Origin: a virus
Lineage: Duplodnaviria > Caudoviricetes
DNA length: 57,282 bases
Strand: one strand, 5' to 3'
IMG/VR virus record: IMGVR_UViG_3300037780_000037
Coordinates: 1 to 57,282 of that record
Each line of letters starts with the position of its first letter. Positions within the stretch are counted from its first letter, which is position 1. Position numbers and translations under genes: made by a program. Positions 1 to 57,282 of this stretch are shown here, piece by piece. The notes beneath the pieces are model-generated. The model did not search any database. It had not been told where the DNA came from and saw only the letters and a list, made by a program, of their open reading frames with translations.

Positions 1-147
1 ATCAACGGCCCCGCCTTCTTCCCAGGGAATCAACGTAGGGCGTAGCTTGACCGCTCAAGCTGAATGATTACCAGCCGGGGTTATTTATAAGCCGCGAACG
101 AACCCACTCACCCTACCCCCCCCCCCCACCAGAGTGCCCCCTCTACC
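1..147. repeat. Direct terminal repeat, left copy (or circular assembly overlap)
   Basis: Identical to 57137-57282 except for the poly-C tract (12 C here, 11 C there). Confidence 0.95.
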
Positions 148-619
148 TCCTGATGGCGTAACCCCCCACCCCCCGGCATAGTTGACATGTAAAGTATCCC
201 GAGGTAGCCGCAGCCGATACCGCACTTGTCGATCCTACGTACACGTACTATCCCGTTTCAGACCCGCAGCCGATGCTGGACCTGCTCAACCGCCTTCTAG
301 CCGCAGCCGTTCGTTTACCTGCTCTGATGGTTGAGGTGGTCGAGGTGCTGCACTAGTGATGCCGCCGATGCTGGTTCTATTCGTCCGAGTCGATTCCAGC
401 GGTGGGAATCGGTTTCTGTGCATGTCTAGCCCGATTCCCAATAAATTCCAGAATCCCCAAGTCCTTACGTTTCAACGGGTTATGGCTCAATCTTCTCAAA
501 CAATACCGGAAAGCCTATTGCCAACAATACAAGCCGCCGATATCCTGCTGTAGGCAGGACGCCAAAACGGTTGGCGTGGTCGCCTGGTTCGGTTCTCTCT
601 CTCTCTCTAGGTGTTAAAA

Positions 620-1039
620 ATGATTGACGATCAAAATTGCTGGGAACTAGGTTTGGATATGGTCCGCGAAGGGCGGGGCAGTTGGTCACTGTCTGCTAAT
701 TGTAAAGTAGCTTGTGGTTTGCGAGTGTTAGAATGCGTCACTACTGAGTACCAGAGTTGCTTAGATCGTGAATACTTGAAAGAGCTTGTTGATCAAGTCC
801 GCGGTGCTGGCGGTAATCAAGTTGCTCTTGCGTTCTTACGTCGCGTTAGATCGTTGGTCCATCCTTCGATCCGCGTGGGTCAAATTTACGGTCAGCGTGG
901 GAACGGATGCAATATCGAGATCATCGCGTTTGAATCCGATGGTTGGATTCGAGTCGAGTTCGAGGATAACGGTGAAATTTGCCTTTTCCATCGATCCGTA
1001 TTTTTTGACCATTTCCGGGGCGTAGTTTCTCGCGTTTGA
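620..1039 (+). CDS. Hypothetical protein
   Basis: ORF with ATG at 620, followed by a hairpin terminator. Confidence 0.6.
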   Translation: MIDDQNCWELGLDMVREGRGSWSLSANCKVACGLRVLECVTTEYQSCLDREYLKELVDQVRGAGGNQVALAFLRRVRSLVHPSIRVGQIYGQRGNGCNIEIIAFESDGWIRVEFEDNGEICLFHRSVFFDHFRGVVSRV

Positions 1040-1059
1040 ATCGCCGCCAGTCAATTATT

Positions 1060-1090
1060 GCCCCCGGTGCCTCGGTGCTGGGGTTTCTTC
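1060..1090 (+). terminator. Probable intrinsic terminator
   Basis: CCCCGGTGC-ctcg-GTGCTGGGG stem (with G-U pairs), then TTTCTT. Confidence 0.55.
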
Positions 1091-1136
1091 TGATCGTGCT
1101 TTGTTTTTCTCTCCCATTAGTTTTTAAGGTTCTAAA

Positions 1137-2366
1137 ATGTCTATTGCTTCAATCACTGCCGCTGATGTTATCCTGTCCTTGCAAGGTAAGACTCTGACTC
1201 TCGATGCTCCAACCACTTGGACCGTGCCCACTGCGGATTTGTACGTGGTTTGTGAATGGTGGCGATATCATGTCCAAGGCCCTGACCGTGTTAGGTTTCC
1301 CGACGTTCCCGCGATAATGTGGGAAGCTGAGTTAGGCAATCGATTAGAGCAAGCGGGTTATCCGGTTATGATGCGTGCGAGCGGTTGCACCCTGATAAAA
1401 CATGTAGACGGGCTTCCCAAGCCATCAAAGATTGTCGGCAAGTATTTTCACGAATTGCGGCAATTGATCGAGCCCCACTACATTACTCGGCCATTCGATC
1501 GCACTGCTATGGGCTACGCATACGGTGCTGATGCTGTCATGAGTGGTGAGACTGAGAAATTGGTTTTAGGTGGGATCAAGAAAACCAAGGTATCCGATTG
1601 CGTGCTGCACTTTTCGCGGCAGTGGTTCTCTGAGGATGGCATTTATGGCGATGCTGGCTCTTGTTTCTATCCTGGTCGCGACTATGGGCATTGCTCGGAT
1701 GGGATCATCGACAACGGTGGTCTAGTTGTTCGTGTCATTCATCCCGATTATGCCTCCCTGGCTGAATCTTCATATGTCGATGATGACGCGATAGACGAAG
1801 CGGGGGCGGCTTTGGGTCGTTGCTGGTTGATGCCGTGCGATAATGTGGACGGGGTTGTGGTGTGTAATTCGTACAACAAAACTGGTCACGGTTGGCTTAA
1901 TCGTGAAGTTATAGCTAATTGTTTGCGTGATCATATCGTGGAAAAGTTTGGTTGTGATTGGCAAGTGGTAAAAGCTGAATCAGGGGAGGCGTGTGGTTGG
2001 TACGTAAACGGTTCTTCTGGTTTCGTCGTCTCGTCTCATACTCCCCGGTACTTTGATCTACCAGACATTGAAGAAGATAAATCTGTAGAATGCGATTGTT
2101 GCGGCGATAGGTTCGATGATGACGAACTAGAGAGCGTAGCAAGTGGGGAGCGGGTTTGTTCTTCGTGTCTGTCTGATTCGTACTTCCTCTGTGAAGTCTG
2201 CGAGGAATACCACCCAACGGATGAAATGCAAACGGTCTATGATTGGTCTGACGGTATGGAACGGTATGTATGTGATTGCTGCATCTCGAACGATTCGGAT
2301 ATTCAGATGGTGCCCGATTGGATAGGTGGCAGTGAAGGTATTCACTACGTGGACATGAGTCGATAG
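1137..2366 (+). CDS. Hypothetical protein with C-terminal CxxC zinc-ribbon repeats; paralog of 49992-51530
   Basis: CDCC/CSSC/CEVC/CDCC at the C-terminus; shares GDxxSCFYPGR, GRxxxMP and YVN motifs with the 49992 ORF. Confidence 0.8.
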   Translation: MSIASITAADVILSLQGKTLTLDAPTTWTVPTADLYVVCEWWRYHVQGPDRVRFPDVPAIMWEAELGNRLEQAGYPVMMRASGCTLIKHVDGLPKPSKIVGKYFHELRQLIEPHYITRPFDRTAMGYAYGADAVMSGETEKLVLGGIKKTKVSDCVLHFSRQWFSEDGIYGDAGSCFYPGRDYGHCSDGIIDNGGLVVRVIHPDYASLAESSYVDDDAIDEAGAALGRCWLMPCDNVDGVVVCNSYNKTGHGWLNREVIANCLRDHIVEKFGCDWQVVKAESGEACGWYVNGSSGFVVSSHTPRYFDLPDIEEDKSVECDCCGDRFDDDELESVASGERVCSSCLSDSYFLCEVCEEYHPTDEMQTVYDWSDGMERYVCDCCISNDSDIQMVPDWIGGSEGIHYVDMSR

Positions 2367-2383
2367 TTAATTCCATCTCTCCG

Positions 2384-2411
2384 GCCCCTGGTGCTGTACT
2401 GGGGGCATTTG
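2384..2411 (+). terminator. Probable terminator hairpin
   Basis: GCCCCTGGT...ACTGGGGGC followed by ATTT. Confidence 0.45.
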
Positions 2412-2429
2412 TCTTTATGAGGTTTCACT

Positions 2430-4881: not shown

Positions 4882-5496
4882 ATGAGTGAATCAAATGCTG
4901 ATGTACCGTTTTATACATTCGTTGTGTATCAAGACGGGGAGTACGATGTTCGCGGTAAACTGTATATGGGTAAAGAACTGGTAACCGATTTACATTGTAT
5001 CGATTTTAAGAATTTGCTCTCTGATGCTGAAATACACAAACTAGATTTGATGCACGCCCCTAATAACTTTCGCAATAAAGACTGGCTATACTCCCGGTTG
5101 AGAATGCACCCAACTGCTATCAGATCAGGCGGGGTGATTGATAATCAAGGGGTTATTCGCTATCTGAAAAAGCCCCCCTCTTCCCAGGAAACTCAAGGGG
5201 AAAAGCCCAAATCGGATGTAGTGTGTCCTGGTATTGATCAGGTGCCGTTTTGTTTGCTGGAACGGGTAGGTGCTATCTTTGCTGAGGGTGAGGTTAAATA
5301 TGGCAGGGATAACTGGAAGCAGGAACCTGATGATAAGAGTTACGATCAGGAACGTATGCGTCACGCTTTAAGACACCTACATTTGTATGCTGATGGCGAT
5401 AGGGCTGAAGATCATTTGGCTAAGGTTGCTTGGTTTTGTGCTACTACTATGTGGAGAGAAGATGCAAATAATAGCGTTAAACGGGCTCACGATTAA
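4882..5496 (+). CDS. dATP/dGTP diphosphohydrolase domain protein (DUF5664) with N-terminal extension
   Basis: GEVKYGRDNW, RHALRHL and EDHLAKVAW motifs. Confidence 0.8.
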   Translation: MSESNADVPFYTFVVYQDGEYDVRGKLYMGKELVTDLHCIDFKNLLSDAEIHKLDLMHAPNNFRNKDWLYSRLRMHPTAIRSGGVIDNQGVIRYLKKPPSSQETQGEKPKSDVVCPGIDQVPFCLLERVGAIFAEGEVKYGRDNWKQEPDDKSYDQERMRHALRHLHLYADGDRAEDHLAKVAWFCATTMWREDANNSVKRAHD

Positions 5497-5959
5497 ACCT
5501 GCTGTTGATGGTAGGATTGGTTCCTATCTCCCAGGAAGCGTTGAGGTTTATAGGTGGAACTGGAGAGCTAAAGATGTGTGTTGGACCCGTTGGACAATAT
5601 TTACCGAAATTGGTAGCGAACCTTATATCTTGGTTGGCTTTTCTGATGGTGGTACTATGGCTCACCGTGTTGCTCATTTGGACAATCGGTGCATTGGCTT
5701 GGTTGTGCATAGTGGTCTTAGAGCTTCCATACCACGTATACGAGATATACCGACGTTACTGGTGACTACGAATGGGGATAGGACTGGTTGTAGACAAGCG
5801 ACTGAGGATATGTATGATCGTTACACAGGCTATGTTACTAATTTAACTTTGGCTGGTGTACCATTTACTAGACCACATAGTTGGTACGAGCGTTTACTAA
5901 AACATCAATTCCATAACGCCTCTGGATTGATTAATGATTGGATTGCGTTGAACTACTAA
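5462..5959 (+). CDS. Alpha/beta hydrolase (esterase-like)
   Basis: Nucleophile elbow LVGFSDGG; downstream Asp (GDRT) and His candidates. Confidence 0.75.
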   Translation: MQIIALNGLTIKPAVDGRIGSYLPGSVEVYRWNWRAKDVCWTRWTIFTEIGSEPYILVGFSDGGTMAHRVAHLDNRCIGLVVHSGLRASIPRIRDIPTLLVTTNGDRTGCRQATEDMYDRYTGYVTNLTLAGVPFTRPHSWYERLLKHQFHNASGLINDWIALNY

Positions 5960-7222: not shown

Positions 7223-7273
7223 TGCTCTCTCCCAGGGAATGGTTTCTTTGGCAATTAAAAGAATACCATAACC

Positions 7274-20607: not shown

Positions 20608-21054
20608 ATGAGTGCTGCGTTCGATTCAGAGCAACCTGACAACAGCGACCCACCTCTTTCCCAGGAAACCGTTTCGGCAGACGAAACAATACAACAAAAG
20701 GTTTCCATCATTGGAACGCTCCCATTGTTCTGCCGTACTTGTACGGATATTCGCTACACTAAAGATTTGACAACATGCCCAACATGCCAATCATCATCGG
20801 TTGTTAAATGTGCGGTGGTTCACTATGCCGAGACTTGTGAAGAAGGCGAGCATGATCCGCGATTCAAACCTGGAAGGTCTTCAACATTCAAAACAGGTTA
20901 TTTTCGCATCCCTTGCCAAACCTCACCATTCTCCAGCGTTAAACCAAAAAACTTATCACCAACACTTGATGCGGTTACATGCCCTCGTTGCTTAGATGCA
21001 ATTGGGGCTGAAATTAATGAATATGGCAGGTTGTTAGACCTACAGGAGTATTAA
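20608..21054 (+). CDS. Cys-rich zinc-finger protein
   Basis: CRTC, CPTC, H...C and VTCPRC motifs; AGGAG SD. Confidence 0.7.
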   Translation: MSAAFDSEQPDNSDPPLSQETVSADETIQQKVSIIGTLPLFCRTCTDIRYTKDLTTCPTCQSSSVVKCAVVHYAETCEEGEHDPRFKPGRSSTFKTGYFRIPCQTSPFSSVKPKNLSPTLDAVTCPRCLDAIGAEINEYGRLLDLQEY

Positions 21055-21548: not shown

Positions 21549-23924
21549 ATGCCTGATTATACTGTTTCCGGTTCTTTACCAGATGATCCTAATAGCAACC
21601 AACCTCCTAAGCGGACTCGGGCAGGCCAAGTTCCGTTAAAGGATTTGATTCGCGAACAGGTTGAAAACTTTGTAGGTGAAGACCGGAAACAGGCAGAGCA
21701 GTTAATCAAGGAAGTTCTCAACGATCTCTACCAAGAGAAACTAGTTGAGTATGAGGAAACCAAATCTTCTTTCCAGGAAGTGCTTGGGAACTTTGGAATT
21801 AAAGGTAGATCAATTGGTACCTTTAAGACCAATATGAAAAAGATTCTCGAAAAATCTGACACCGATAAGGTAAAGAAATTTGACGAGATGACTGAGTTCG
21901 CACGTAAGTATGCGGCTCAAATTCTACCAGAGGGTTCTGATGATGCTGAGGGATTAGCCAACGCATTAATTTCTAATTACCCACAGAGACCCAAAAAGCG
22001 TGACTTAGTAGGTGATGCTTTCAATCGTGCTATTGATATGGGTGCTTTTGGGGAGGACTATTTTGATTACTCAGTATTTAATCAAGAAAATCCTTCCCAA
22101 GAAGAAATAGCAGATTTACTTGCTTACAATACGGATCGTCGAAGACATGCAGAAATTAGGGATAAGATTCTAAACACTTCCTTCGATGATGATTACGATA
22201 AAGCAGAAGAACGGGGTGTTATGTCCGATGACCCCGATTCTTATGAACCAATCAATATTGATAATGAAAACACCGTTTCTGATCAATCAGACGAAGCTGC
22301 TGCTAGAACACCACCGCCTTCTTCCCAGGAAACTTCAGAAAGGTTGCCGTTAGATGATCTAGTACAGAATGAATTCTTCTCCCCAGAAGAAATGCAGGAA
22401 ATGCTTCGTGGTGCTAGAAGCGGCGGTAAAAAATCTGACGATTCTGATAGGATAGATAATCTTAGATTTTCAGCCGTTGAATCTATCGCCTCCCAATTAA
22501 TGTCTCGGGCGTTCGGTACCAGCTTCTATCCAGTTCTAACAGCTTTACGTACAGCACGCGAAGTTACTAAATTAGAAACTGATGAAGATGTTGGTATAGG
22601 AGATGTAATTCGCTTCACTACCGATTCAACAGGTAAATTATTAACAAGAGGTGCTGATGCTTTAGGATTAGGAAGTATTGGGGAAAGCATTAGTAAGATG
22701 CTCGGTTTTAGTGATGAATCATCCCTAGAACATACGGGAGCTATGCCTTTAGCAGATTTGCCATCAGATGATTTGTCCCGTGCTGCTCAGGACCTTAGTG
22801 GTGCTGCTTCATCTTTAGATGCTTCGTCAGATGTTTTAGATAGCCTTGCAGAGAATGGCGGTTTCGGTGGAGGTGGTGGTGATAATATAGACCCCAGTGG
22901 TTTCAATACGCCCGATGATGACGACCCTGAAAATGAAGATGAAATGTCACCGGCTGAAATTATTGCAGGTTTGGCAGGATTAGGTGCTATCGGTATTATC
23001 GCCGGTACAGTTGGTAAACATGTATTTAGCACCCTTAGTGATACGGTATCGGATCAAGTTAGATACACATCTCAATTAGCTTATAATTCGATGGCATCGC
23101 CAGGGAGTGTGTCTGGTGTTCAAATGGCTGGACAACCTTTTAAGGCTGCTGCGGGTGTAGCTAACGCTTTTTCGCCTATCGCTGGTGGTGTAGCGGGTGC
23201 AGCAATTGGTAAAGCTCTTGGCCCCGGTATAGGTAAAGTCGCTGGCGGTATTGCTGGTAAAACAGCAGCAGGAGGTGTGGGGCGTGCAGTGGGCGGAGCT
23301 ATTGGCTCATTTATACCTATTCCATTTGTGGGAACTTTAATAGGTATTGCTGCTGGAGGAGTCATAGGTGATATGATTTCCAGCACGGTCGGTGCATCGA
23401 TAGATATATTGAAGTCTATTGATGAAGGTATCCAAGAATTGTCGGTAACCTTAACACCTTTCAGTTCTGATTTAGTAGGTGCAACAGTTGAAGCTGACAT
23501 AGCTCGATTAGAAGCACAGATGAGACAAGCTGATCAACTAGGAGGGTTGTTGGCCGAGAATGTTAGGTCAAGAAGCGAGTTTGAATTAGCCGTAACAGAT
23601 TTGGGAACTCAAATAGCTTACGCTATGACTCCGATGATGACCCAATTATATGATTTACTAACACCACTAGTTTCTATAGCATCTACTAATGTGAGACAAG
23701 GTGTTGATATATTAAATGCTATTAATCAAATATCAGGAGTCTTTGGTATTAGTATTGGGAACACTCTTGATGATGTTACTAAGTTATTGAATTTAATTGC
23801 TGGTAACACTAAAGACGATGTTGCATTTATGCAAGAGCTTGATGATTTTCTCAACCCTCAAACCAACCCACTTGATCCAAAGATGCTTACTAACGTAGGT
23901 GCGTTCGGGGGCTTTACATTATGA
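21549..23924 (+). CDS. Tape measure-like protein
   Basis: Gly/Ala-rich hydrophobic repeats (GGAIGSFIPIPFVGTLIG) and a helical C-terminus; follows the tail tube gene. Confidence 0.65.
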   Translation: MPDYTVSGSLPDDPNSNQPPKRTRAGQVPLKDLIREQVENFVGEDRKQAEQLIKEVLNDLYQEKLVEYEETKSSFQEVLGNFGIKGRSIGTFKTNMKKILEKSDTDKVKKFDEMTEFARKYAAQILPEGSDDAEGLANALISNYPQRPKKRDLVGDAFNRAIDMGAFGEDYFDYSVFNQENPSQEEIADLLAYNTDRRRHAEIRDKILNTSFDDDYDKAEERGVMSDDPDSYEPINIDNENTVSDQSDEAAARTPPPSSQETSERLPLDDLVQNEFFSPEEMQEMLRGARSGGKKSDDSDRIDNLRFSAVESIASQLMSRAFGTSFYPVLTALRTAREVTKLETDEDVGIGDVIRFTTDSTGKLLTRGADALGLGSIGESISKMLGFSDESSLEHTGAMPLADLPSDDLSRAAQDLSGAASSLDASSDVLDSLAENGGFGGGGGDNIDPSGFNTPDDDDPENEDEMSPAEIIAGLAGLGAIGIIAGTVGKHVFSTLSDTVSDQVRYTSQLAYNSMASPGSVSGVQMAGQPFKAAAGVANAFSPIAGGVAGAAIGKALGPGIGKVAGGIAGKTAAGGVGRAVGGAIGSFIPIPFVGTLIGIAAGGVIGDMISSTVGASIDILKSIDEGIQELSVTLTPFSSDLVGATVEADIARLEAQMRQADQLGGLLAENVRSRSEFELAVTDLGTQIAYAMTPMMTQLYDLLTPLVSIASTNVRQGVDILNAINQISGVFGISIGNTLDDVTKLLNLIAGNTKDDVAFMQELDDFLNPQTNPLDPKMLTNVGAFGGFTL

Positions 23925-29963: not shown

Positions 29964-30684
29964 AAAAGACTGTACGCTAAACCTTTGCGTAGAGCACATA
30001 CGTGTTTGCGGTTGGGAACCTATCGTATTTGCAGAACCTAACAGCACTGAAACAGATTGTCAGACTATATGGAATGAGCAACGAAAAGGTGTTTGGTATA
30101 ATTGGTTACACTCTGCTAAGTGGTGTTTAGAAAATACAGATGCAGACGCTATTCTAACAATCCAAGATGATACTATACTTCATCCAGACTCAAAGACGTT
30201 CGCAGAGAAATGTTTATGGCCTGCACCGGATTGCGGGTTTTTATCGTTGTACACGCCCAAGCACTATTCTTTCTACAAGATGAAAAGTCTAAGAGACCCA
30301 GGGGTAAATCGTATACGGACGAAGGGGTTATGGGGTGCCTGTGCTTTAATCTTTCCCAGGGAAGTCTTAGGGCGTGCAGTTAATTCCAGAATAGCCAACC
30401 AATGGTTAGGGGCTCCACCGAGATCAGGTAAACCATCAGTCTATGAGAAACGCAAACTTGATCCGACGCTTGTAGTTAATAGCGATACGGCTATTGGTAA
30501 AATAATGAACTCAATGGGTCGAAGCATGTGGTTCATCGACCCATCACCAGGATTTCATGCGGCTAAATACTCTACCTGTAGTCATGGCGATAATACTGGC
30601 AGACGTAATGCTTATAGACCAGCTAACTTCGACATACCACTGGAAGATCAGGTACCTTTAAGAGAGTGCTATGACATTAAATGA
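29920..30684 (+). CDS. Glycosyltransferase (GT-A-like)
   Basis: IQDD (DxD-like) motif, WGACAL, SD..IG and a C-terminal His. Confidence 0.7.
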   Translation: MQEPKWVVAVATAPRKDCTLNLCVEHIRVCGWEPIVFAEPNSTETDCQTIWNEQRKGVWYNWLHSAKWCLENTDADAILTIQDDTILHPDSKTFAEKCLWPAPDCGFLSLYTPKHYSFYKMKSLRDPGVNRIRTKGLWGACALIFPREVLGRAVNSRIANQWLGAPPRSGKPSVYEKRKLDPTLVVNSDTAIGKIMNSMGRSMWFIDPSPGFHAAKYSTCSHGDNTGRRNAYRPANFDIPLEDQVPLRECYDIK

Positions 30685-34602: not shown

Positions 34603-34733
34603 CTTTATCCCAGGAACATCCTGCGAGAAACGAAACAATGTCAGCAACAATGCCAACAACAATACTAAAGATACCCAATTCATCGGTTGGTCGCAAGAGG
34701 AAACTTGAAAAATTTTCTTTGGAAGAAACCCTG

Positions 34734-37286: not shown

Positions 37287-38329
37287 TGAGTGATTTGAGA
37301 TATGATTTACTACCAGACTTGGACAAGATACAAAGTATATGTTCGTCTAACCCAAGTCTGGTAGCGTTGGCAAATCATTTAGATAGTTTGCCAGAAGCAC
37401 CTGATGCGTTTGATTACGATAACGCAGAGTATGATGATTACCAATCACCACCAGAAACTATTATGCCTAGAAAAAAAGCTGCTGTTAAAAAACCTACTAC
37501 TTCGTTACTACCAGATGTAGATGACTTAAATGTTCCACCTGATAATTTCCTAGAATACACAACCTGTATCTATGGGGCTAAGGGGATCGGTAAGACAACC
37601 TTAGCATCTTCTTTCCCAGGATTCGTTACGATTATGACGGAGCCCTTGCGAAAGAACCTTGCAATTAGAATGAAGGCTCTGCAATGCTACGACTACGATA
37701 GTATCACAGAGAAGGGTGCTCCCGACGCATGGCCCTTGTTCAAAGAAATGATTGATGAGGGTATTGAACGGGACGATATTCAAGGATTTAATATCGACAC
37801 AGTTGATAGGTTATATGAATCCTGCTTGACTCATCACTGCGTTGTTGAAGGTGTCAGGCATCCTGGTGGCCTCAATGACTTCGGAGCCTTATGGTCTATC
37901 ATTAAGGACGATTTTGAAACGACCTTAAACAGCATCCGAGAAAATAATCTTGGATTAGTTCTTGTCTCTCACGCAAAGGAAGATGATATTGAATTAAACA
38001 CTGGGCTGAAAGGAAAGATGTACGCACCCAGTTGTTCGGGAGCCGCGACCAAGTATCTTAAAGCGGCTTGTGATTACGCATTCTTTTATGGTTATCATGC
38101 TAAAAAAAGGGCGTTACACTTTCGTGGCTTTGATTTTATCTGGACTTCGTGCGGTGTCAGGGATAGATTCATTAGCAAATCAGGCGATCCGTTGACGTTG
38201 GTTTACGTGGAAAAAGACCATATTGACAACGGGTACGAATTATTACAAGCTGGTTTTGAAAATCGACTTTGGAACTATGATGAAGAACCAGAGGACGAGG
38301 AACCAACTACCAAGAGAAAACGTAAGTAA
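37286..38329 (+). CDS. AAA_24/Sak4-like ATPase (recombinase)
   Basis: YGAKGIGKTT, IDTVD and SHAK motifs; adjacent to an exonuclease and an SSB-like gene. Confidence 0.85.
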   Translation: MSDLRYDLLPDLDKIQSICSSNPSLVALANHLDSLPEAPDAFDYDNAEYDDYQSPPETIMPRKKAAVKKPTTSLLPDVDDLNVPPDNFLEYTTCIYGAKGIGKTTLASSFPGFVTIMTEPLRKNLAIRMKALQCYDYDSITEKGAPDAWPLFKEMIDEGIERDDIQGFNIDTVDRLYESCLTHHCVVEGVRHPGGLNDFGALWSIIKDDFETTLNSIRENNLGLVLVSHAKEDDIELNTGLKGKMYAPSCSGAATKYLKAACDYAFFYGYHAKKRALHFRGFDFIWTSCGVRDRFISKSGDPLTLVYVEKDHIDNGYELLQAGFENRLWNYDEEPEDEEPTTKRKRK

Positions 38330-39291: not shown

Positions 39292-39312
39292 GTCTCTCTC
39301 CCAGGAAACATA

Positions 39313-41271: not shown

Positions 41272-41600
41272 AAATTTTTGTAGGTAATAAGTCTAAAGGA
41301 CATACAGGTTATTACTGTGGAAGACCGTCACCTCTAGGCAACCCTTTTAAGATAGGTGCTGACGGCGATAGAGATATGGTAGTAGATAATTACGCAGTGT
41401 ATTTATTAAACAACTATCGTAATTCTAGCAAGATAAAAATTTGTATAGATAGGTTAGTAGACTACGTTATAAAGTATGAAAAGTATACTTTAGTATGCTG
41501 GTGCTCGCCCGATAGGTGTCATGCGGACGTAATAGCGGAGTTAGTAAAACAATTACTTGAGGAAAGAGGTTATGATGTTAGAATTACTAAACTTTCATAA
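41265..41600 (+). CDS. DUF4326 domain protein
   Basis: YCGRPSPLGNPF and L.CWC.P..CHADV motifs. Confidence 0.9.
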   Translation: MLEIFVGNKSKGHTGYYCGRPSPLGNPFKIGADGDRDMVVDNYAVYLLNNYRNSSKIKICIDRLVDYVIKYEKYTLVCWCSPDRCHADVIAELVKQLLEERGYDVRITKLS

Positions 41601-42342
41601 GATTGAAGTTTATCCTGTCACCGCGTCAAAACCGGATGAGCATTATAAAGGTGATTGCCCATTTTGTGACTCACCTAAATTTCACGTTAACATCCAGAAA
41701 CAGATGTGGGATTGTAAGAAATGTAGTAACGAAGGCAATCAGTATACATTTCTAACTAGAATCTACGAGCAGTGCGAAGCTGCTAGTGAAGACTATGATA
41801 AACTAGCATCGCAGCGTAAAGGCATCCTAGCTACAACACTGGAAGAAGCTGGTTTTGTTTGGGATAACTTAAACAGTCGTTGGTTAGTGCCGTATCAAAA
41901 CGGATCAGAGTTCCTAAATAACTTGGGAGCGTTCCGACCCGAATACGGTTTCAGGATATTCAAATCACCAGGGATGCCCCTGAAGCTTTACAGACCGTTT
42001 GACAAAAAGAGTTTCAAAGATACGGTAGTAATCGTCGAGGGCGAATGGGACTTACTCGCAATTAAACCCTTCCTTCCCAGGGAGTATTCCGTAACGGCAG
42101 TTCCAGGGGCTATGACTTTCAAAGAGGAGTTTATTTCTGATTTCCGAGGTAAGCATGTTATTCTATGCTACGACAAAGACGACTCCGGCAAAGCTGGAAT
42201 CGCGAAGGCTGTAAGATTACTGAATCCTGTTGCCGAATCCATTAAGTTCCTACAGTGGCCGGATGATTTTCATTTCCGCTCTGCTGACGACTCGAATGAA
42301 GATGGTAAGGATTTACGCGACCTTGTAACGCATTTGAGTTGA
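41572..42342 (+). CDS. DNA primase (zinc ribbon + TOPRIM)
   Basis: CPFC...C.KC, VEGEWD, YDKD.SG and KD.RD motifs. Confidence 0.9.
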   Translation: MMLELLNFHKIEVYPVTASKPDEHYKGDCPFCDSPKFHVNIQKQMWDCKKCSNEGNQYTFLTRIYEQCEAASEDYDKLASQRKGILATTLEEAGFVWDNLNSRWLVPYQNGSEFLNNLGAFRPEYGFRIFKSPGMPLKLYRPFDKKSFKDTVVIVEGEWDLLAIKPFLPREYSVTAVPGAMTFKEEFISDFRGKHVILCYDKDDSGKAGIAKAVRLLNPVAESIKFLQWPDDFHFRSADDSNEDGKDLRDLVTHLS

Positions 42343-42553: not shown

Positions 42554-44012
42554 GCGAAAGAAGAAAAAAGCTACGGACGTTTGGAGTTTCATCAGTAGTA
42601 ATTTAATACCTGCTGTAGAAATGGAAGCGTCTGAGTACATCGATACTAAGTACACATTGCCTGAAACTGATCCGATTAAATCCTGGGAGGAATTAAGAGA
42701 CGTATTCCACAATAGTGGCTTATATCTAACAGAGGGCAATGATTATGCGATTGCTGTTTGTATTGCTACGGTGCTTTCACCCTATCTCCCAGGGGAACCG
42801 ATCTGGGTGTTTTTAGTAGGTCTCCCATCGAGTGGTAAGACCACAATCATCGAATCATTCGGATCATCCAATATGTACTGTGAGGCTCAATCTCAGCTTC
42901 ATGATACAATGCTGGTATCCGGTGCTAAGAGTGCTGATGGTAAGGATTCGTCATTCTTACCAACCTTGAAGAAGCGTACTCTACTTATTAAAGATTACAC
43001 TACGGTCGTATCGATGGACCATCGTAGTCAAGAATCTTTATATGGTATCCTACGGGACGCTTTCGATGGTACATTCAAAAAGCGGTATGGCAACCGAGAG
43101 ATTAGAGTATTCACCCAGTTGAAGTTTGGTTTTATTGCTGGAGTCACTCGAGTCATTCACGGCGACTCACGATCATCATTGGGTGAACGGTTTCTGAAGA
43201 TCGAGTATCATGAAGAAGATGAATTCGATGAGCAGACTCACGCACTAGCAGCAATGCGGTCATCAGCTAATAAAGATGAACGGACTTCAATGCTCGAACG
43301 ATCAATGCTAGGTTTTATTGATCATCTAATCAGTAATATGCCTGACAACGATTCTCGACCAAAGATTGAAAACGGATCAGAATTTGAATTACAGATTGTG
43401 AAGCTGGCTTTACTTGTTTCATACCTTCGAGCCCAAGTAGATCGTCGTGGTGATGATTCGTTGTTGTACCGTCCAGGTAAAGAAATAGCATCCCGCCTAT
43501 CAGTCCAATTCAAAAAAGTAACTGAATGTCTGATGCTAATATTTAATGTTACAGAACCTAATAACTTAATCTATAAGGTCATTCGCAAGTTAGCATTAGA
43601 TTCGTGCATCCCATTCAATGTTGAGTTTGCTCGTTTACTATACAACAATCCCGCTGGCATCTCCCGTAGTGATTTAGAGATTGAATTACAAATACCCAGC
43701 ACGAATATACATCGAATCTGTAACGACTTGTTGCAGTTAGGTATCATTAAAGTTAGTCGAGTACCTAACGGGAAAAAATCTGGTAGAGATAAACACGTTT
43801 ACGTTCTTAACCCTGTCATAGCTCAGCTATGGGAAGAAACCATCGAGGTACAAGATTATGTTCGCGTTCAATCTAAGACTACTCGCGTTCGCAAGCGGAA
43901 ATCAGTTCGAGGTAGTTCAGTCGATTCAGACGAAGCAATTGACGTACCCACAGATCGTCCGACCCGAAAGCGTGTTAAGCGAACTTCAAGAACAAATGCT
44001 GAAGAAACTTAA
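42546..44012 (+). CDS. MCM-like AAA+ replicative helicase with C-terminal winged helix
   Basis: GLPSSGKT, LIKD, LRDAFDG, GERFL arginine finger, C-terminal HTH. Confidence 0.75.
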   Translation: MAKRKKKKATDVWSFISSNLIPAVEMEASEYIDTKYTLPETDPIKSWEELRDVFHNSGLYLTEGNDYAIAVCIATVLSPYLPGEPIWVFLVGLPSSGKTTIIESFGSSNMYCEAQSQLHDTMLVSGAKSADGKDSSFLPTLKKRTLLIKDYTTVVSMDHRSQESLYGILRDAFDGTFKKRYGNREIRVFTQLKFGFIAGVTRVIHGDSRSSLGERFLKIEYHEEDEFDEQTHALAAMRSSANKDERTSMLERSMLGFIDHLISNMPDNDSRPKIENGSEFELQIVKLALLVSYLRAQVDRRGDDSLLYRPGKEIASRLSVQFKKVTECLMLIFNVTEPNNLIYKVIRKLALDSCIPFNVEFARLLYNNPAGISRSDLEIELQIPSTNIHRICNDLLQLGIIKVSRVPNGKKSGRDKHVYVLNPVIAQLWEETIEVQDYVRVQSKTTRVRKRKSVRGSSVDSDEAIDVPTDRPTRKRVKRTSRTNAEET

Positions 44013-45156: not shown

Positions 45157-46063
45157 AGTTATAGCGGAGCTATACAGACTAGGCCACTTCCACAACCCAG
45201 CACACCCAACAGGTGTTGTAGAGAATGACCTACCCCGCTTAAAACTCACAGATGATCCAGTACGTAAAGCCATTGCTTCCTACCAGGAATTTATGGCGAC
45301 GGACTTTGATAGACTATCTATGAGTGAACACGGGCGTATCGGTATTGCTGATGGAGAAGTCGGCCCAGCAACTGAACGATTGTTTGATGTTGAAAGATGC
45401 GGGCTACCTGACTACGCGGTAGAAGAAACTGGTCGGGGTTCATGGCCCGTAGGGTGTCACCCAGAGTTTCCCGGTATCCACTCATTTTCTCTTTACATCG
45501 ACAAATCAGGGATGCCAGGATTTCTACGGACCTACTTTGATGATGCTTGGTTGTTATGCCGCCAAGCTTATGCAGATATCGGCATTGCATTCTTTGAAGT
45601 AGACTCACCATCCCGAGCTAACACGGTTGTTACTTGGACCCGTGGCAATGGCTGGATTGGCTTAGCTATTGTACCACGATCCCCACAATGTAGAGAACGC
45701 ATCTGGGCTAAGTTTGATAATCGATATCAACCAGCCGATATGCTTAATCAATGGGCTCGTTTATTAGCTCATGAATTCTGTCACAATATGGGGCTATCCC
45801 ACACTCGCGGTGGCATCATGAACCCATCAATTACTTCAGGCCCTTTTACTCCCAGGGCGTGGCGAGGCGATCCTAGTGAACCGGCATTGGTACGATTCTT
45901 TGGAGGGGTGCCAGTTGATTTAGGAATTGGCAAGCCTGAACCTGAGCCCGAACCTGATCCACCCAAAGAACCAAATGAATATTGGTTCAAGGGACATTTC
46001 TCACTTATGAAAGGTGATGAAAATCTTGGTGATTACATCCTCACTCCAAAACCAAAGGTATAA
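45143..46063 (+). CDS. Matrixin (M10/MMP-like) zinc metalloprotease with prodomain
   Basis: HEFCHNMGLSH zinc motif, Met-turn IMNP, cysteine switch RCGLPD, PG-binding-like DG.VGPAT. Confidence 0.9.
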   Translation: MQTNKVIAELYRLGHFHNPAHPTGVVENDLPRLKLTDDPVRKAIASYQEFMATDFDRLSMSEHGRIGIADGEVGPATERLFDVERCGLPDYAVEETGRGSWPVGCHPEFPGIHSFSLYIDKSGMPGFLRTYFDDAWLLCRQAYADIGIAFFEVDSPSRANTVVTWTRGNGWIGLAIVPRSPQCRERIWAKFDNRYQPADMLNQWARLLAHEFCHNMGLSHTRGGIMNPSITSGPFTPRAWRGDPSEPALVRFFGGVPVDLGIGKPEPEPEPDPPKEPNEYWFKGHFSLMKGDENLGDYILTPKPKV

Positions 46064-47528: not shown

Positions 47529-47659
47529 TGCCAAAGAAAACATCATCTAAACCAAAGAACCGCTGTTGGAAAGGATACGAGCCTACTCCTGGCAAAAAAG
47601 CCTACAGTGACGGTTCCTGTCAGAAGGCTAAAAAGTCTAAAAAATCCAACAAGAAGTAG
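47528..47659 (+). CDS. 43-aa basic peptide with CWKGY...GSC motif (not in ORF track)
   Basis: MPKKTSSKPKNRCWKGYEPTPGKKAYSDGSCQKAKKSKKSNKK; translationally coupled on both sides. Confidence 0.65.
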   Translation: MPKKTSSKPKNRCWKGYEPTPGKKAYSDGSCQKAKKSKKSNKK

Positions 47660-47660
47660 C

Positions 47661-49013
47661 ATGGCTAAAAGAACTAAGAAACTTGACCAACTCGAATCGA
47701 CTTCTTCTACGCCCCTTCGATTCGAGTATTTGGACCCAAAGAGCATCAAACTCAACGCTAAAAACTGGCGGGTTCACCCACGACGGCAACGACAAGCCTA
47801 CAACGCATTCAAAAACCAAGTCGGTTGGGCCGGTGCAGTCCTAATCAATGAAACTACAGGGAACCTCCTCGATGGTCACATGCGAGTTGATGAAGCTATC
47901 AAAAACGAAGACCCTTCAGTACCCTGCCTGATAGGCTCCTGGACCGAAGAAAAGGAAAACTTGATTCTCCAGTCGCTTGACCCCCTCGGAACGCTTGCAA
48001 GCACCGATAGAGAGGCCCTAGCAAGCCTTACCGAAGCTAACCGGAAAAAACTCACGGACTTGGGCAACGACCACACCCGCAAACTAGCCCAATTAACCGA
48101 AGACCTGAAAGCCCTATCCCAATCCGAGGAATCCGGTCCTCTACTGAAGCAAACCAAGCCACTACGCAAACCAAAGCCTCTCTCCCAGGAAGACCCTGAT
48201 GAAGAACTAAACAATACTGATAACGATACAGAAGACAATATTGATGTATCGTACCAACCCCCAAAGAACAACAAAGATATTCGGCGGGAGATCATCGAGT
48301 CTGACGTTTTCTTTGCGTCTGATGATTACGCGGTTACTATCCCGCTCCAGTTGCCGACGCTGCTACCCCATATGTTAGCAACGCCTGATATGGCACCACG
48401 TCAGACCTTTAATCGTTCACGATCCCAACAACATACACCGGATACTTATTATTGCATTTCATCGGTACCTTGGCCTGAATCCCGAGATGGTGGCGTATTA
48501 GGTTTCTTCACCGAAGATTACCGATTCAATAACTGTTATGATTTTGCAGCAGACTTCTTAGAAGAAATACTAGACGAAGACTGGACTACAATCTTACTCC
48601 CAGATTATTCATTATACGATCACTACCCACTAGCCATGAAACTATGGAATTTATACCGTAGTCGATGGTGCGGTCGTTATTGGCAAGAAGCAGGTTTTCA
48701 TGTAGTACCTATTATTCAAGGTTGTCAATTAGGTTCTGAATCTGACGCTTCTATGACACGACCCATATGTATAGATACTCTGCCCAATAATACACCAATG
48801 ATTGCTTGTCAAATGAGAAGCACCAAAGGTTATCAAGATTTCTGCGAAGATATTAACTACGCTGTAGAAACTAAAAACATTGAAACGGTTTTAATCTATG
48901 GGGGCCTTGATAGGCAAAAGGTACTTCATGGTTATTTGACAGATAAAGCCGAGATCATATACTTGCCTTCATTCATCAAAGCACGCAAAGAAGTGTTAAA
49001 GAGGGAGAGTTAA
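47661..49013 (+). CDS. ParB-like N-terminal domain fused to DUF4417
   Basis: NWR.H, VG...V..N...G.L.DGH.R; C-terminal FFTEDYRF, PDYSLY and WN.YRSRW.G.YWQ..G..V.P. Confidence 0.85.
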   Translation: MAKRTKKLDQLESTSSTPLRFEYLDPKSIKLNAKNWRVHPRRQRQAYNAFKNQVGWAGAVLINETTGNLLDGHMRVDEAIKNEDPSVPCLIGSWTEEKENLILQSLDPLGTLASTDREALASLTEANRKKLTDLGNDHTRKLAQLTEDLKALSQSEESGPLLKQTKPLRKPKPLSQEDPDEELNNTDNDTEDNIDVSYQPPKNNKDIRREIIESDVFFASDDYAVTIPLQLPTLLPHMLATPDMAPRQTFNRSRSQQHTPDTYYCISSVPWPESRDGGVLGFFTEDYRFNNCYDFAADFLEEILDEDWTTILLPDYSLYDHYPLAMKLWNLYRSRWCGRYWQEAGFHVVPIIQGCQLGSESDASMTRPICIDTLPNNTPMIACQMRSTKGYQDFCEDINYAVETKNIETVLIYGGLDRQKVLHGYLTDKAEIIYLPSFIKARKEVLKRES

Positions 49014-49953: not shown

Positions 49954-49991
49954 TTCTGTTAGTTTCGTATCTCTCTCCCAGGAAATTTCTT

Positions 49992-51605: not shown

Positions 51606-53093
51606 ATGTTCAACATTTATGACCACGCCGAATCCATTATCCGACGCTGCAACCAGCCCAAAAGCGATCTGCTCGGACACGGCAAGAAAAAAGAAGATTA
51701 CCTGTTCATCCCGTCCAAGTCGCACAAGCCCCGTGCTCTGGCTGTAGCCCACTGCGACACGGTATTCGGGGACATTCCTTCTTCCCAGGAGATGGCTCGC
51801 CGGGAGGCATCAGCCCAAGCAAGTTATCAAGACAAACTCACTAAATTTGAAAATGGTGAGCAGAAGGTTAAGCCTGTTTACTACGCCCCGAGTTTCCTGT
51901 CACCAGCGAGACGTGAAGGCAGTAACAGGATCGTTAGCGGTGCTTTGGACGACCGTTTAGGTGTAGCAATCATCTTAGACATTCTCCCGCATTTTATGCC
52001 TGAGTTTGCTTTCGATATTCTGCTTACTGACGACGAGGAGACCGGAAATTCAACCGCCCGTGACTTCTCTCAGGATTATCTTGCGGGCGGCGAGTGGGGC
52101 GAGTACATCGATAGTCGGTTGCTCAACTACCAGTTCATTTTCGAGTTTGATCGTATGGGTGTTGACGCAGCAACTTACGATTTTGGTAATTCTAAAGCAT
52201 CTAATTTACTTTCCGATACTGGTTGGGAAGAATCACAGGGTTCATTCACTGATATCTGCGATTTAGACTCGTTCGACTTATGGGCTTGTAACTTTGGCTG
52301 TGGTTATCACAATCAGCACACCCGAAGTTGTTCAGTTGATCTACGAGAATTGTACATCAACTTGCTCAAGTTCAGCTATTTTGTAGAAGAATTAGGTGAT
52401 ACGGTTCTGTACAACGAACCCAAACCACGTTATCGGGGCTGGAGTAACGCTTACAACTACAGCAAAAGCAGCAAAGTAGATTCTTATGCTCCTTACGAAA
52501 CTTACGTCGATGATGACGATTACTACAAAGACGAGAAGTACGACAGTTACGTTATCGGGCGACCAAAACCTGCGACACAACCAAGTACAAACAATACCTT
52601 TATTCGGACTACAAATACTGTAGTACAATCAGGTATCAGCTTTTTTCAAGCAGCTATTAAAATTGCTAATCAATTAAAAGTAGCTTATCGTTTAAGTTTA
52701 CTTCATAGTGATCCGGCAACAAAGAAGCTGTATGAAGACAACTTTACTAAAGGGCCTTGTGGTGAGATATTCGTTAAAAATGATCAGTACGACGAATATG
52801 ATGCTGAGTGGCAGGAATACATAAACGCCCTAGCTGAAGCACACCCTAGCATATCTGAACTCATTGACGAGGTTGGATTGGATGAGCCTGATACCGAAGT
52901 TGTTGACGACTCAGTTTTTTATGTTCAAGATGATACCTCCAGGGCTTGGGACGAAACCTGGGATCATTATCGAGATCAGTATGGTGAAGAATCCGATCCA
53001 TATGATGATGACGATGATCAAGCTGTAATTTTCATAGCTGATCCGAAACAAATCGAAGGTGATGATGATGATGAAATCATTACCGCTAAATAA
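51606..53093 (+). CDS. M28/M20-clan zinc peptidase with acidic C-terminal extension
   Basis: AHCDTV, GALDDRLG, DEETG, EFDR.G, GSFTDI and N.G.GYH..HT. Confidence 0.88.
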   Translation: MFNIYDHAESIIRRCNQPKSDLLGHGKKKEDYLFIPSKSHKPRALAVAHCDTVFGDIPSSQEMARREASAQASYQDKLTKFENGEQKVKPVYYAPSFLSPARREGSNRIVSGALDDRLGVAIILDILPHFMPEFAFDILLTDDEETGNSTARDFSQDYLAGGEWGEYIDSRLLNYQFIFEFDRMGVDAATYDFGNSKASNLLSDTGWEESQGSFTDICDLDSFDLWACNFGCGYHNQHTRSCSVDLRELYINLLKFSYFVEELGDTVLYNEPKPRYRGWSNAYNYSKSSKVDSYAPYETYVDDDDYYKDEKYDSYVIGRPKPATQPSTNNTFIRTTNTVVQSGISFFQAAIKIANQLKVAYRLSLLHSDPATKKLYEDNFTKGPCGEIFVKNDQYDEYDAEWQEYINALAEAHPSISELIDEVGLDEPDTEVVDDSVFYVQDDTSRAWDETWDHYRDQYGEESDPYDDDDDQAVIFIADPKQIEGDDDDEIITAK

Positions 53094-55403: not shown

Positions 55404-55406
55404 CGT

Positions 55407-55497: not shown

Positions 55498-55506
55498 GGT
55501 GCGATT

Positions 55507-55923
55507 ATGAGAGACGTGTGGAACAAAGACCCGGCAGCGTGGGAAGCGTTGACGCTCAATGAGCGACTGGAAGCAATACGCAGGTGGCATTGCACGGGAC
55601 CAAGTGGGCAATGTGCATCGTCGATGAATACTCGCGAAACGCTGAACAGGACGATTCGCGAGGTCCAGCATGAAATGGCGACGGCGAAGAAGCTAAGCTA
55701 TCGCGACGATGAAAGGCTTGGCGAGGCGTTGAGCGTCATGCTTGTGGAGTTGGCAGACGCAAGGGCAGCATGTGCGAGAATGGCGGAAAAACAAGACGAC
55801 GAAGGGATGCGACTGTATCACGAAGGGCAAGCAGACGCGTATCTGATGGTCAAACGTGGTGTGGAAAAACATTTGGCGAAGTTGCCGCAAGCAGAAGACT
55901 GCCGCAGTGTAGGGCCGTTTTAG
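55507..55923 (+). CDS. Hypothetical protein carried on an apparent gene cassette
   Basis: Bounded by GTTCGTGGG (55491) and its reverse complement CCCACGAAC (55927). Confidence 0.6.
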   Translation: MRDVWNKDPAAWEALTLNERLEAIRRWHCTGPSGQCASSMNTRETLNRTIREVQHEMATAKKLSYRDDERLGEALSVMLVELADARAACARMAEKQDDEGMRLYHEGQADAYLMVKRGVEKHLAKLPQAEDCRSVGPF

Positions 55924-56040
55924 TATCCCACGAACGATATTTTCAGGCTGGTTGAATCACACCGAAATTGACGGCCAATACGCGATAGGCGGTGAGAAAT
56001 GGCATTACCAGGAATTAAAACAGCTTAAAAGGAATTAACT

Positions 56041-56268
56041 ATGTTAGTACTAAAAGTGCCAAACCAGAAACATATTTTTATCATAAATAAGGAAACTGGT
56101 GAGCAGATAAAGTTATTAATTAAAAATTCCACACATGCGGGTGTATCAGTATGTATTGAAGCACCCGAAAAATACCGTATATTACGTGAAGCACTTATGT
56201 TAGAAGACAACCCAGGGGAATTTGTTAATGCCAACATTGAGAGAAATAGCAAAAGCAAAATTAATTAA
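56041..56268 (+). CDS. csrA: CsrA/RsmA-like RNA-binding protein
   Basis: MLVL......I.I......I.L......V.V.IEAP....I.RE.L pattern; AAAGGA SD. Confidence 0.7.
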   Translation: MLVLKVPNQKHIFIINKETGEQIKLLIKNSTHAGVSVCIEAPEKYRILREALMLEDNPGEFVNANIERNSKSKIN

Positions 56269-56464
56269 TCAAGCTAAACGCTGTCAATTAATATGCGGCA
56301 GCTTCGATGGTAACTTATGGGTTTGTTTATGTCCTGGACCTGAATCATGCCCATTAACAGCCGAGCAAAGGACCGCTCTCTCCCAGGAAGACGAGGTTCA
56401 ACAACGTATAAAAGAAAACAAATTTCAATATGCAGAGATGATGAATGACCGAACAGATAGTTAA
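56228..56464 (+). CDS. Small Cys-rich hypothetical protein
   Basis: Five Cys; overlaps the end of csrA. Confidence 0.5.
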   Translation: MPTLREIAKAKLINQAKRCQLICGSFDGNLWVCLCPGPESCPLTAEQRTALSQEDEVQQRIKENKFQYAEMMNDRTDS

Positions 56465-56697
56465 TCATTACCAGCCACAGACTATAGCAATGATATACAC
56501 CGTTATCATCTTTGCTCTTGGCTGGGCAGCGGGTGCAGTAACCATTACAGCATTCAGGCATACGTTCATGAGACGTGACAATCATCTTCACCGCTCAAGG
56601 TGAATAAATTCCATAATCCCGGCACTGGTATACGCGAGCATATTACCACCCAAACTGCCACCGATACCAAACCCTCTCCCAACTTTGGAAGCGAAAA

Positions 56698-56970
56698 ATG
56701 GATACTGAACTACGTGATTTTTTAATCGAAAACGGTAGGAAATCTGGCGAGGGTTATTTTGTTAGTTACGAGATTGTAATTTGTACTGGCCCGAAGGGGG
56801 CTGAGTTGGTAGTTGACCATTTCCCAGAGTTGGGTAATCGAATTTGTTTAAGTAGCAGGTCACCCCGATCAGAGTTCAGCGAGCTTCTACTGGCGAACAT
56901 AACAATGCAACAGTTTGTGGCTCTGCTGGCAGCGTTTACCCCAGACTTGCCAAAAACCCCTGAACCATAG
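56698..56970 (+). CDS. Hypothetical protein
   Basis: 90 aa; last ORF before the non-coding terminal region. Confidence 0.6.
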   Translation: MDTELRDFLIENGRKSGEGYFVSYEIVICTGPKGAELVVDHFPELGNRICLSSRSPRSEFSELLLANITMQQFVALLAAFTPDLPKTPEP

Positions 56971-57136
56971 GTATAACAATTGCGGTCTATAGTTAAAAAA
57001 AGACCCACCCACCCCTCTGCTGGTACTGCACGTTAAATAAGGACGCTGTGGTGCCTGCTGAGGGGTTTTCTCGTTTTAGGCTGTGATTACACCAACCCAA
57101 CTCAGAACAACGCACAGACGAGGGCTGAGAGGCTGT

Positions 57137-57282
57137 ATCAACGGCCCCGCCTTCTTCCCAGGGAATCAACGTAGGGCGTAGCTTGACCGCTCAAGCTGAA
57201 TGATTACCAGCCGGGGTTATTTATAAGCCGCGAACGAACCCACTCACCCTACCCCCCCCCCCACCAGAGTGCCCCCTCTACC
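57137..57282. repeat. Direct terminal repeat, right copy
   Basis: ATCAACGGCC...CTCTACC matches 1-147. Confidence 0.95.

Follow-up and report, generated by a model that had tools for sequence, protein, structure and literature searches.

The stretch of DNA analysed here (the window) is a whole IMG/VR viral record of 57,282 bases, a siphovirus-like phage contig with nearly all open reading frames (ORFs) on the + strand, along which a short, oriented word with the core TCCCAGG is repeated. Pfam and PHROGs identify among its genes a large terminase, a lambda-type capsid, a decoration protein and a tape measure; a family-A DNA polymerase and a DnaG-type primase (zinc ribbon and Toprim); a UvrD-like helicase, which is the only long minus-strand gene; a PD-(D/E)XK exonuclease, a Sak4-like protein and a UDG-family protein; an XRE-type helix-turn-helix protein (6322-6903); and a protein carrying ParB and DUF4417 domains (ParB-DUF4417). 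The word is a genome-level DNA signal, not an effect of mRNA or codon choice; a wider family of ParB-DUF4417 phages carries it in lineage-specific versions, and it is probably read by the phage's own DNA-replication machinery.

The word in the window

TCCCAGG occurs at 18 unique places on the + strand, with one more + copy in the end repeat (57156) (Table 1 gives the + copies; in the text, copies are named by the first base of this core), and at 6 places on the - strand. Dinucleotide shuffles of the window contain a mean of 4.86 copies on both strands combined and at most 9. Because a long motif inflates its own sub-words, a maximum-order Markov test of k-mers was uninformative and an order-3 model was used, under which TCCCAGG is the most enriched 7-mer on the + strand (18 against 2.6 expected, Poisson p = 3.8e-10). 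We also shuffled synonymous codons 500 times with all proteins and the codon usage preserved: coding copies on + then average 2.23 with a maximum of 7, against 15 observed, and the 6 coding copies observed on - are at chance level (null mean 3.93, maximum 11). Ser-Gln-Glu is written TCC-CAG-GAR in 8 of 12 cases, even though TCC is the least used codon for serine and CAG the less used of the two for glutamine. The coding copies occupy all three phases (7 in the Ser-Gln-Glu phase, 8 if ORF 56222-56464 is real, and 3 in each of the other two), the remainder being intergenic, and the proteins are rich in Pro, Ser, Gln and Glu where they carry a copy, which fits a word sited wherever the protein tolerates it. 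Since the enrichment survives the synonymous shuffles and copies occur in every phase and between genes, it is real, strand-specific and selected at the nucleotide level.

Conservation of the flanks runs from -6 to +9, so that the full word is the 16-base CCTYYYTCCCAGGRAA. A matrix of this word, trained on the + copies and hence biased toward that strand, finds 18 places on + and 1 on - at scores of at least 16. The majority of copies lie inside genes at distances to starts no shorter than chance; only those at 39299 and 49976 stand just before a start (14-16 bases), followed by 7230 and 27509 at 44-45 bases. A translation-start signal was rejected for the window because most copies have no start codon after them.

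A preliminary description of this DNA had reported about 24 copies of an oriented motif, read in different frames and found between genes, and had attributed it to selection on nucleic acid and not on protein. All 25 coordinates that it gave (19 on + including the end-repeat copy, 6 on -) are exact, and orientation, frames and the level of selection are borne out by the matrix, the phase count and the codon shuffle; its total holds for the 18-19 real oriented sites on +, and the other-strand copies that it included are at chance level. Two checks that it proposed, a codon-aware null model and conservation in relatives, also came out in its favour, as the + enrichment persists in the first and the word is kept between close relatives in the second. 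It was likewise right that blocks 13052-17960 and 53100-55980 hold no copy, but about 2.5 would be expected there, so this absence alone is not significant.

Table 1. Positions of the word and of the candidate reader genes in the window; scores are those of the word matrix.
Feature	Position	Strand	Score	Context
Copy 1	14..29	+	23.5	in 146-base end repeat, 14 bases from contig start, intergenic
Copy	5176..5191	+	20.9	ORF 4882-5496, S-Q-E phase
Copy	5523..5538	+	22.5	ORF 5505-5765, S-Q-E phase
Copy	7224..7239	+	22.5	intergenic, terminase start 44 bases downstream
Copy	20653..20668	+	25.3	
Variant copy	21765..21780	+	16.3	one core change (TTCCAGG)
Copy	22317..22332	+	24.2	tape-measure-like gene; 0 mismatches to CTTCTTCCCAGGAAA
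Copy	27503..27518	+	22.6	next start 45 bases downstream; decayed copy at homologous place in G001
Copy	30348..30363	+	17.6	
Copy	34602..34617	+	18.6	antisense within UvrD-like helicase gene (33079-34761, minus)
Copy	37608..37623	+	17.2	Sak4-like gene
Copy	39293..39308	+	23.8	just ahead of likely polymerase start 39313
Copy	42069..42084	+	21.2	primase gene
Copy	42781..42796	+	20.3	Leu-Pro-Gly here; Phe-Pro-Gly in other codons, no site, in G001
Weak copy	45844..45859	+	13.6	core only
Copy	48177..48192	+	24.9	ParB-DUF4417 gene
Copy	49970..49985	+	23.8	start 49992 16 bases downstream
Copy	51777..51792	+	21.9	
Copy	56375..56390	+	22.5	
Second copy of site 1	57150..57165	+		end repeat
DnaG-type primase (CHC2 zinc ribbon + Toprim)	41557..42342	+		candidate reader; Pfam
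MCM-like AAA+ ATPase with C-terminal winged helix	42525..44012	+		candidate reader; predicted structure, Foldseek, Pfam
ParB-DUF4417 protein	47607..49013	+		family marker, candidate link to motif only; Pfam/PHROGs, predicted structure

Versions of the word across a phage family

Relatives of the window are related IMG/VR contigs found by alignment of the capsid and of the polymerase; labels beginning with G and L name genomes and loci. The consensus of this clade is yTyTCCCAGGAA. In G001 (37 kb) the most enriched 10-mer is TTCCCAGGAA, with 7 sense copies vs 1 on the other strand (0.11 expected), and in G009 (29.7 kb) YTCCCAGGR occurs 12 times forward and 0 times in reverse, the reversed control giving 0/0. 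At 78% capsid identity, L009 has two fully flanked copies, both at places that are empty in the window, and homologous places mostly differ between lineages. Between closely related genomes the sites themselves are retained: G009 and G010 (88.9% identity) share 12 of 12, with mismatches at 0/168 positions in the word and 31/960 in the flanks, and 10 of 11 are shared by L077 and L075 (93.5% identity). At 77% identity or below sites decay and turn over, though somewhat less than their own flanks, and no site is conserved in the L076/L069 pair, where the matches lack the pyrimidine tract. Several fragments carry a copy less than 300 bases from a contig end, a proximity that we judged not significant.

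The ParB-DUF4417 protein leads to a wider circle of genomes. It has 74 homologues at E <=1e-10, and an alignment of 69 gave 80 viral loci. Wherever the homologue is full-length (30-54% identity; complete contigs of 46-60 kb as well as fragments), the locus has its own strand-biased, over-represented word, and these words share one grammar, a pyrimidine tract followed by CAG (CAA in one lineage) and a purine run: ctctcCCAGAAAAAA in G014 and L074; ttttcTTTCAGGA in G019; ccTCTCCAGAAA in G013, G015, G016 and G017; cccCTCCAGAAG in G012; CTCCAGAGAA in G011; and, with CAA in place of CAG, ttCTTCCAAAGAA in G018. When 17 loci (383 kb) are pooled, Y5-CAG-R3 occurs 162 times in the sense direction and 51 times in the opposite one. 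The remaining 63 central triplets average 32, the next-highest among them being shifted registers of the same word; a T seven bases ahead of the C of CAG and a C directly before CAG are also conserved. This fixed pattern is strongly biased (majority first) in G017 (21:1), G016 (18:1), G015 (21:3), G013 (15:6) and G014 (25:11), and stands at 5:4 in G018 because the word there uses CAA. Synonymous-codon shuffles again fall short of the observed numbers (G017, 21 vs a mean of 7.7; G009, 27 vs 9.1; G014, 25 vs 12.6). Lineage-specific matrices find 235 majority-direction and 45 minority-direction copies in 13 genomes (~690 kb), a ratio that overstates the bias, as the matrices were trained on the majority strand. 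That the word belongs to a phage family with lineage-specific versions was missed in the preliminary description.

The ParB-DUF4417 protein is itself a conceivable reader, binding or loading at the word as at a parS, a Noc-binding site (NBS) or a KorB operator. Every genome with the motif was found through the full-length gene or carries it, and in the 60 loci matching one of its two domains only (L083-L142) the number of + copies of the grammar always stays below five and is mostly 0-3. In its predicted structure (predicted local distance difference test, pLDDT, 85.1) the first ~150 residues match ParB, Noc and KorB (Foldseek E ~1e-4; template-modeling (TM) score to target 0.45-0.50), and the window core TTCCCAGGAAA is one base off the centre of what we take to be the Noc-binding palindrome. 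The words of other lineages, however, are unlike the Noc site, ParB-family sites are dimer-bound palindromes whereas this word is asymmetric and strongly oriented, and the co-occurrence is confounded by kinship of the genomes. The C-terminal DUF4417 part has weak TIM-barrel-like structure matches only, and no nuclease fold was recognised in it; in a recent preprint, ParB-DUF4417 figures among the common phage fusions, with its function given as unknown (10.1101/2025.10.10.680097). The parS-like site suggested in the preliminary description thus keeps its ParB/Noc/KorB-like protein and loses on palindromy and clustering, and we regard this explanation as improbable.

Cultured relatives and hosts were sought by several routes. 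A phage collection gave no match to the window in a nucleotide search and no close cultured relative in protein searches with the terminase, ParB-DUF4417, XRE and polymerase. A metagenome scan by polymerase returned a single distant contig only; genome contigs scanned by capsid alignment contained no prophage relative, and those scanned by ParB-DUF4417 yielded only distant DUF4417 proteins (Anaerolineae, Nitrospirota and other metagenome-assembled genomes) and no host clue. A scan of the window for tRNAs found none.

Two further repeats were seen in passing. L068 of G020 carries, in 13910-16347, six copies of another word, AAAGAGGGCCG, with a conserved G/T before it, on one strand and in three intergenic gaps; this cluster looks iteron- or operator-like and distinct from the dispersed motif. 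One strand of L081 (IMG/VR, 16,969 bases) is studded with long stretches of G, and GGGGGGGGGG occurs 13 times vs 0.02 expected.

Direction, spacing and contig ends

Genes on the minus strand separate a signal on DNA from one on the transcript. Over 13 genomes, plus-strand genes (569 kb) hold 170 majority vs 30 minority copies (0.299 and 0.053 per kb) and reliable minus-strand genes (46.6 kb) 17 vs 4 (0.365 and 0.086 per kb), counts that are not fully independent, since G013, G016 and G017 are mutually related. The proportion in minus-strand genes is like that in plus-strand genes, so the word keeps its direction where the gene turns round. In G017, for example, a run of ten ORFs on the minus strand (49865-54022) contains four forward copies, all at junctions between cistrons and each ~30 bases or less from an ORF end. 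Copies are distributed 67/70/33 over the codon phases, and 42 of 235 are intergenic, about twice the number predicted from the non-coding fraction.

An element acting in mRNA (bound by S1, CsrA or NusB/E as a boxA-like site, or cut by an RNase) would suit the fact that, with nearly all genes on the motif's strand, almost all copies are transcribed in sense. A pyrimidine tract followed by purines resembles boxA and S1 sites, and a few copies place a Shine-Dalgarno-like AGGA right before a start (39299, 49976). Against this, ten window sites showed no fold beyond shuffles (z from -1.15 to +1.99), a scan of the window matched no Rfam family, and copies in minus-strand genes keep the majority direction and so lie antisense to the local mRNA. 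The RNA element or CsrA target entertained in the preliminary description is accordingly disfavoured, and is the least probable of the explanations considered.

Binding sites tied to transcription, whether stoperator-like (for instance for the XRE protein as repressor, also put forward in the preliminary description) or reload sites for an elongation factor, meet the same difficulty. Cluster A mycobacteriophages have 20-30 asymmetric 13-14 bp stoperators that follow the direction of transcription (PMC6550527), and DUF4417 alone occurs as a 'nuclease' near the left end (gene 1 or 2) in numerous 50-53 kb mycobacteriophages. G014 has three reverse copies immediately ahead of minus-strand genes and, on either side of a divergent gap, two forward copies opposite a reverse one; several G019 copies are directly upstream of starts. 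But the direction stays unflipped in minus-strand genes, and the window copies are mostly intragenic and no closer to starts than chance. No integrase or ParA was matched by Pfam among the window ORFs scanned, although failing to find them by sequence does not prove them absent. For the XRE protein, neither the PDB nor the phage collection gave a match. The XRE homologue of L009, moreover, is only ~45% identical (a tblastx segment), yet the word there is unchanged. The XRE stoperator therefore fared poorly, and we consider transcription-linked sites as a class unlikely to a considerable degree.

Two other functions were tried and rejected. As for promoters, 9 of 12 copies in L072/G014 are placed 60-140 bases ahead of the next called start, but distances look random in the window and most lineages, and forward copies also occur inside minus-strand operons. 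Avoidance of Type III-like restriction was set aside by reasoning only, as it explains the strand bias and not the 7-fold enrichment.

In six lineages, majority copies follow one another at more regular intervals than expected by chance, with coefficients of variation (CV) of the gaps of 0.48-0.67: G019 (CV 0.48, p = 0.0004), G013 (p = 0.0008), G017 (p = 0.0016; largest gap 4.2 kb vs 8.1 kb expected), G015 (p = 0.025), G018 (p = 0.027) and G011 (p = 0.035). Fisher's method over ten lineages gives 5e-6. Of the 13 genomes, 12 have a mean gap of 1.9-4.3 kb, the exception being G020 (5 sites) at 10.1 kb. A word of ~15 bases with an invariant CAG between pyrimidines and purines, one direction, even spacing in several lineages, places that drift while their number stays stable, and lineage versions together point to a transaction on phage DNA that needs regular sites on one strand.

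The word might also be a Chi-like self marker that halts a one-way helicase-nuclease, either the host's or one formed by the phage UvrD-like helicase and PD-(D/E)XK nuclease. The sites are oriented, dispersed, found in all frames and not conserved in position, and the phage encodes those two enzymes together with a Sak4-like protein. Known Chi words are short, with 5-8 bases, and are enriched and skewed in the host chromosome; the 12-16 conserved positions here, which include a degenerate pyrimidine tract, make a longer word. We hold this to be very unlikely.

Bases 1-146 recur at 57137-57282 with a difference of one C in a poly-C run (12 vs 11), which is probably behind the classing of the record as linear, and a Logan contig from the sole run containing the window ends at 57249, just ahead of that run of C. 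The same sequencing run exists as assembled contigs, one of which covers 14147-57249 unbroken at the sites; being an assembly, it says nothing about nicks, ends or variants. Copy 1 is flanked by a direct repeat, ATCAACG (1-7, 28-34), and its CAG lies at contig bases 23-25. A distant relative, G013, has a weak TTTCCAGAAG inside its 87-base end repeat with CAG also at bases 23-25, a coincidence that may be chance or a real terminus.

Some other features of the window deserve mention. Blocks 13052-17960 and 53100-55980 combine raised GC with tail-fibre-like genes (Laminin_G_3, T4 gp9/10-like N-terminus), small genes without assigned function and zero copies of the motif, which fits recent acquisition; G001 has different genes at the place of the first block. 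The polymerase most likely starts at 39313 rather than 39274: the G001 homologue aligns from residue 14 (M14), and the bases immediately ahead of the later start include a motif copy with AGGAAA. The terminase of G001 (L014; ~500-1400 of the G001 sense strand, vs 7672 in the window) has ~900 extra bases in the middle of the homologous region, perhaps an intein, an intron or a gene that was inserted there. ORF 4882-5496 matches PF18909 (dATP/dGTP diphosphohydrolase N-terminal domain, E 2.4e-11), a family linked to phage genomes with modified bases.

Candidate readers and known systems

The primase and the MCM-like ATPase are separate genes in the window and its nearest relatives, and form one fusion of ~640-800 residues in most of the homologues listed; split forms of the ATPase protein have 461-488 residues. 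The ATPase model (pLDDT 85.7, predicted TM score 0.80) matches MCM subunits and AAA+ ATPases of the same clade in Foldseek, with E from 5e-8 and TM scores to query of 0.35-0.45, and its C-terminal winged helix has Pfam matches to HTH_IclR and MarR_2.

We favour, at a probability of about 30%, a reading of the word as dedicated lagging-strand priming sites for these two proteins, an option absent from those of the preliminary description. The primase, working with the ATPase, would start primers at a composite word of ~15 bases in which an invariant CAG (CTG opposite) stands between 8-10 pyrimidines and a run of 4-7 purines. If one strand were always the lagging-strand template, as in rolling-circle replication, this would account for a nearly uniform direction regardless of the local gene, and likewise for a copy every 2-3 kb whose place drifts while the number is preserved; word and reading protein would change together, giving lineage-specific versions. 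The sequence analysis establishes the motif, its strand bias, its independence of codons and of gene direction, its occurrence in the family, its spacing and pattern of conservation, and the domains of primase and ATPase; we infer that the primase or the ATPase reads the word, that priming occurs there, and which strand is the template. Priming is favoured because the signal is on DNA, its direction is independent of genes, its spacing is even in six lineages, its grammar is shared, its sites are kept between close relatives, T7 offers a parallel and the family carries the primase-ATPase; a tract of one base class beside a start site is also natural for a template or a single-strand track and unusual for a duplex-binding repressor. 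In T7, active primase sites were recently described as a trinucleotide flanked by 2 bases on the 5' side and 10 on the 3' side; there are 26 of them, or 14 after consolidation, spaced ~1-6 kb apart on a single chain rightward of the origin (PMC12839067); flanks alter binding of the T7 primase up to 10-fold (PMC6136900). The family shows the corresponding arrangement of an invariant trinucleotide with flanks, spaced at one to a few kb, CAG being singled out of 64 triplets and the window itself being uneven. A stricter form, in which priming takes place only at the lineage-specific word of ~15 bases, needed every 2-3 kb on one strand, seems to us doubtful; such a priming code, if true, would through co-evolution of word and enzyme give a replication that recognises its own DNA and ignores that of the host.

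Several observations weigh against lagging-strand priming. Known DnaG-type primases require a trinucleotide only, and to our knowledge no primase word so long and so conserved has been described; MCM-type helicases travel 3'-5' along the template of the leading strand, and a plain T7-like scheme is then less straightforward. Spacing in the window is not even (CV 0.98, p = 0.66), nor is it in G009 or G001, and the 13.4 kb between 7230 and 20659, which hold conserved head genes and block 13052-17960, have no + copy and could not stay unprimed. The fixed pattern is weakly biased in G012 (18:13), G011 (25:18), G019 (16:11) and G020 (20:17), and the bare core in G001 stands at 9 on + vs 6 on -. Apart from the inflation of the matrix ratio by its training, minority hits amount to 45 of 280 and cluster in some lineages, and the reverse copies of G014 look transcription-linked. 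The sign of GC skew is not constant across the family, and genes were called by our own longest-ORF rule.

The main rival of priming is a set of site-specific single-strand interruptions, in which a phage nickase would cut mature DNA on a single strand at each copy or close to it; sequence by itself does not tell this from priming. There is precedent in T5, the phiKMV-like phages and Pseudomonas putida phage tf. The nicks of tf number 14, all on the top strand within 5'-TACT/RTGMC-3', with none of the sites on the other strand, and T5 and phiKMV have other consensus words; even there the nicks are described as having no known function (PMC3517423). Copy numbers are similar here, strand specificity likewise holds at the level of the genome, words are lineage-specific, and one copy lies inside the end repeat near the contig start. 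The restriction of the consensus to one strand recurs in the window (18 vs 1), G009 (12:0), G017, G016 and G015 and is weaker in G001, G012, G019 and G020. As to positions among relatives the picture is mixed, with sites kept at 89-94% identity and lost at 77% or less. Pfam and PHROGs, however, found no nickase-type domain (HNH, GIY-YIG) in the window ORFs scanned, DUF4417 is only weakly TIM-barrel-like, and the long degenerate pyrimidine run is unlike known nick words. We judge nicks to be rather unlikely.

Whichever protein reads it, the word belongs to a known kind, the oriented genome-wide phage word, in a version that is new and in an uncultured family; we found no description of such a word in phages among open-access papers and preprints. 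Were the copies to serve in priming or nicking, they would account for a constraint on how phage genomes evolve, in which newly gained blocks are free of the word and sites are confined to protein linkers and the joins between genes, and the word would then also be a sequence marker for spotting the family in metagenomes. The lineage words and the candidate readers form a natural allelic series for testing.

Compared with known systems, the word is most like the priming sites of T7 gp4 in being ~15 bases long with a short invariant core and flanks, in numbering a dozen or two per genome at intervals of a few kb, and in lying mostly on one strand. It differs in that the T7 flanks are loose biochemical preferences, invisible by eye or in k-mers, whereas 12-16 positions are conserved here and are known from the sequence itself; the helicase partner, too, is MCM-like with a winged helix and not DnaB-like. 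With the nicks of T5, phiKMV and tf it shares a lineage-specific consensus on one strand in 4-14 or more copies within genes (PMC3517423), but the nick words have no pyrimidine tract, and the sites of tf crowd into one half of the genome, unlike the even spacing in six lineages. Cluster A stoperators resemble it in number and form, with 20-30 asymmetric, oriented sites of 13-14 bp over ~50 kb, a trait that is found here too, in having lineage variants (PMC6550527) and in the DUF4417 protein common to both. Stoperators follow transcription and need an immunity repressor, whereas here direction ignores the gene strand and no repressor relative, integrase or ParA was found in the searches of the window described above. 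The start-associated sequences of Cluster K mycobacteriophages reportedly consist of an asymmetric 13-bp word that contains a Shine-Dalgarno-like core and precedes many genes; in the window, no more than 2-4 of the 18 copies stand immediately ahead of a start, most being deep in genes. From ParB-family sites the word departs in being asymmetric and direction-biased and not a palindrome. Genome-wide oriented words are thus known in few phages, as nick sites, stoperators and T7 priming preferences, and the purpose of the nicks has stayed unexplained after decades; the present case stands out among them by its visibility to simple statistics, its family-wide grammar with lineage versions, its independence of gene direction, and its even spacing in several lineages.

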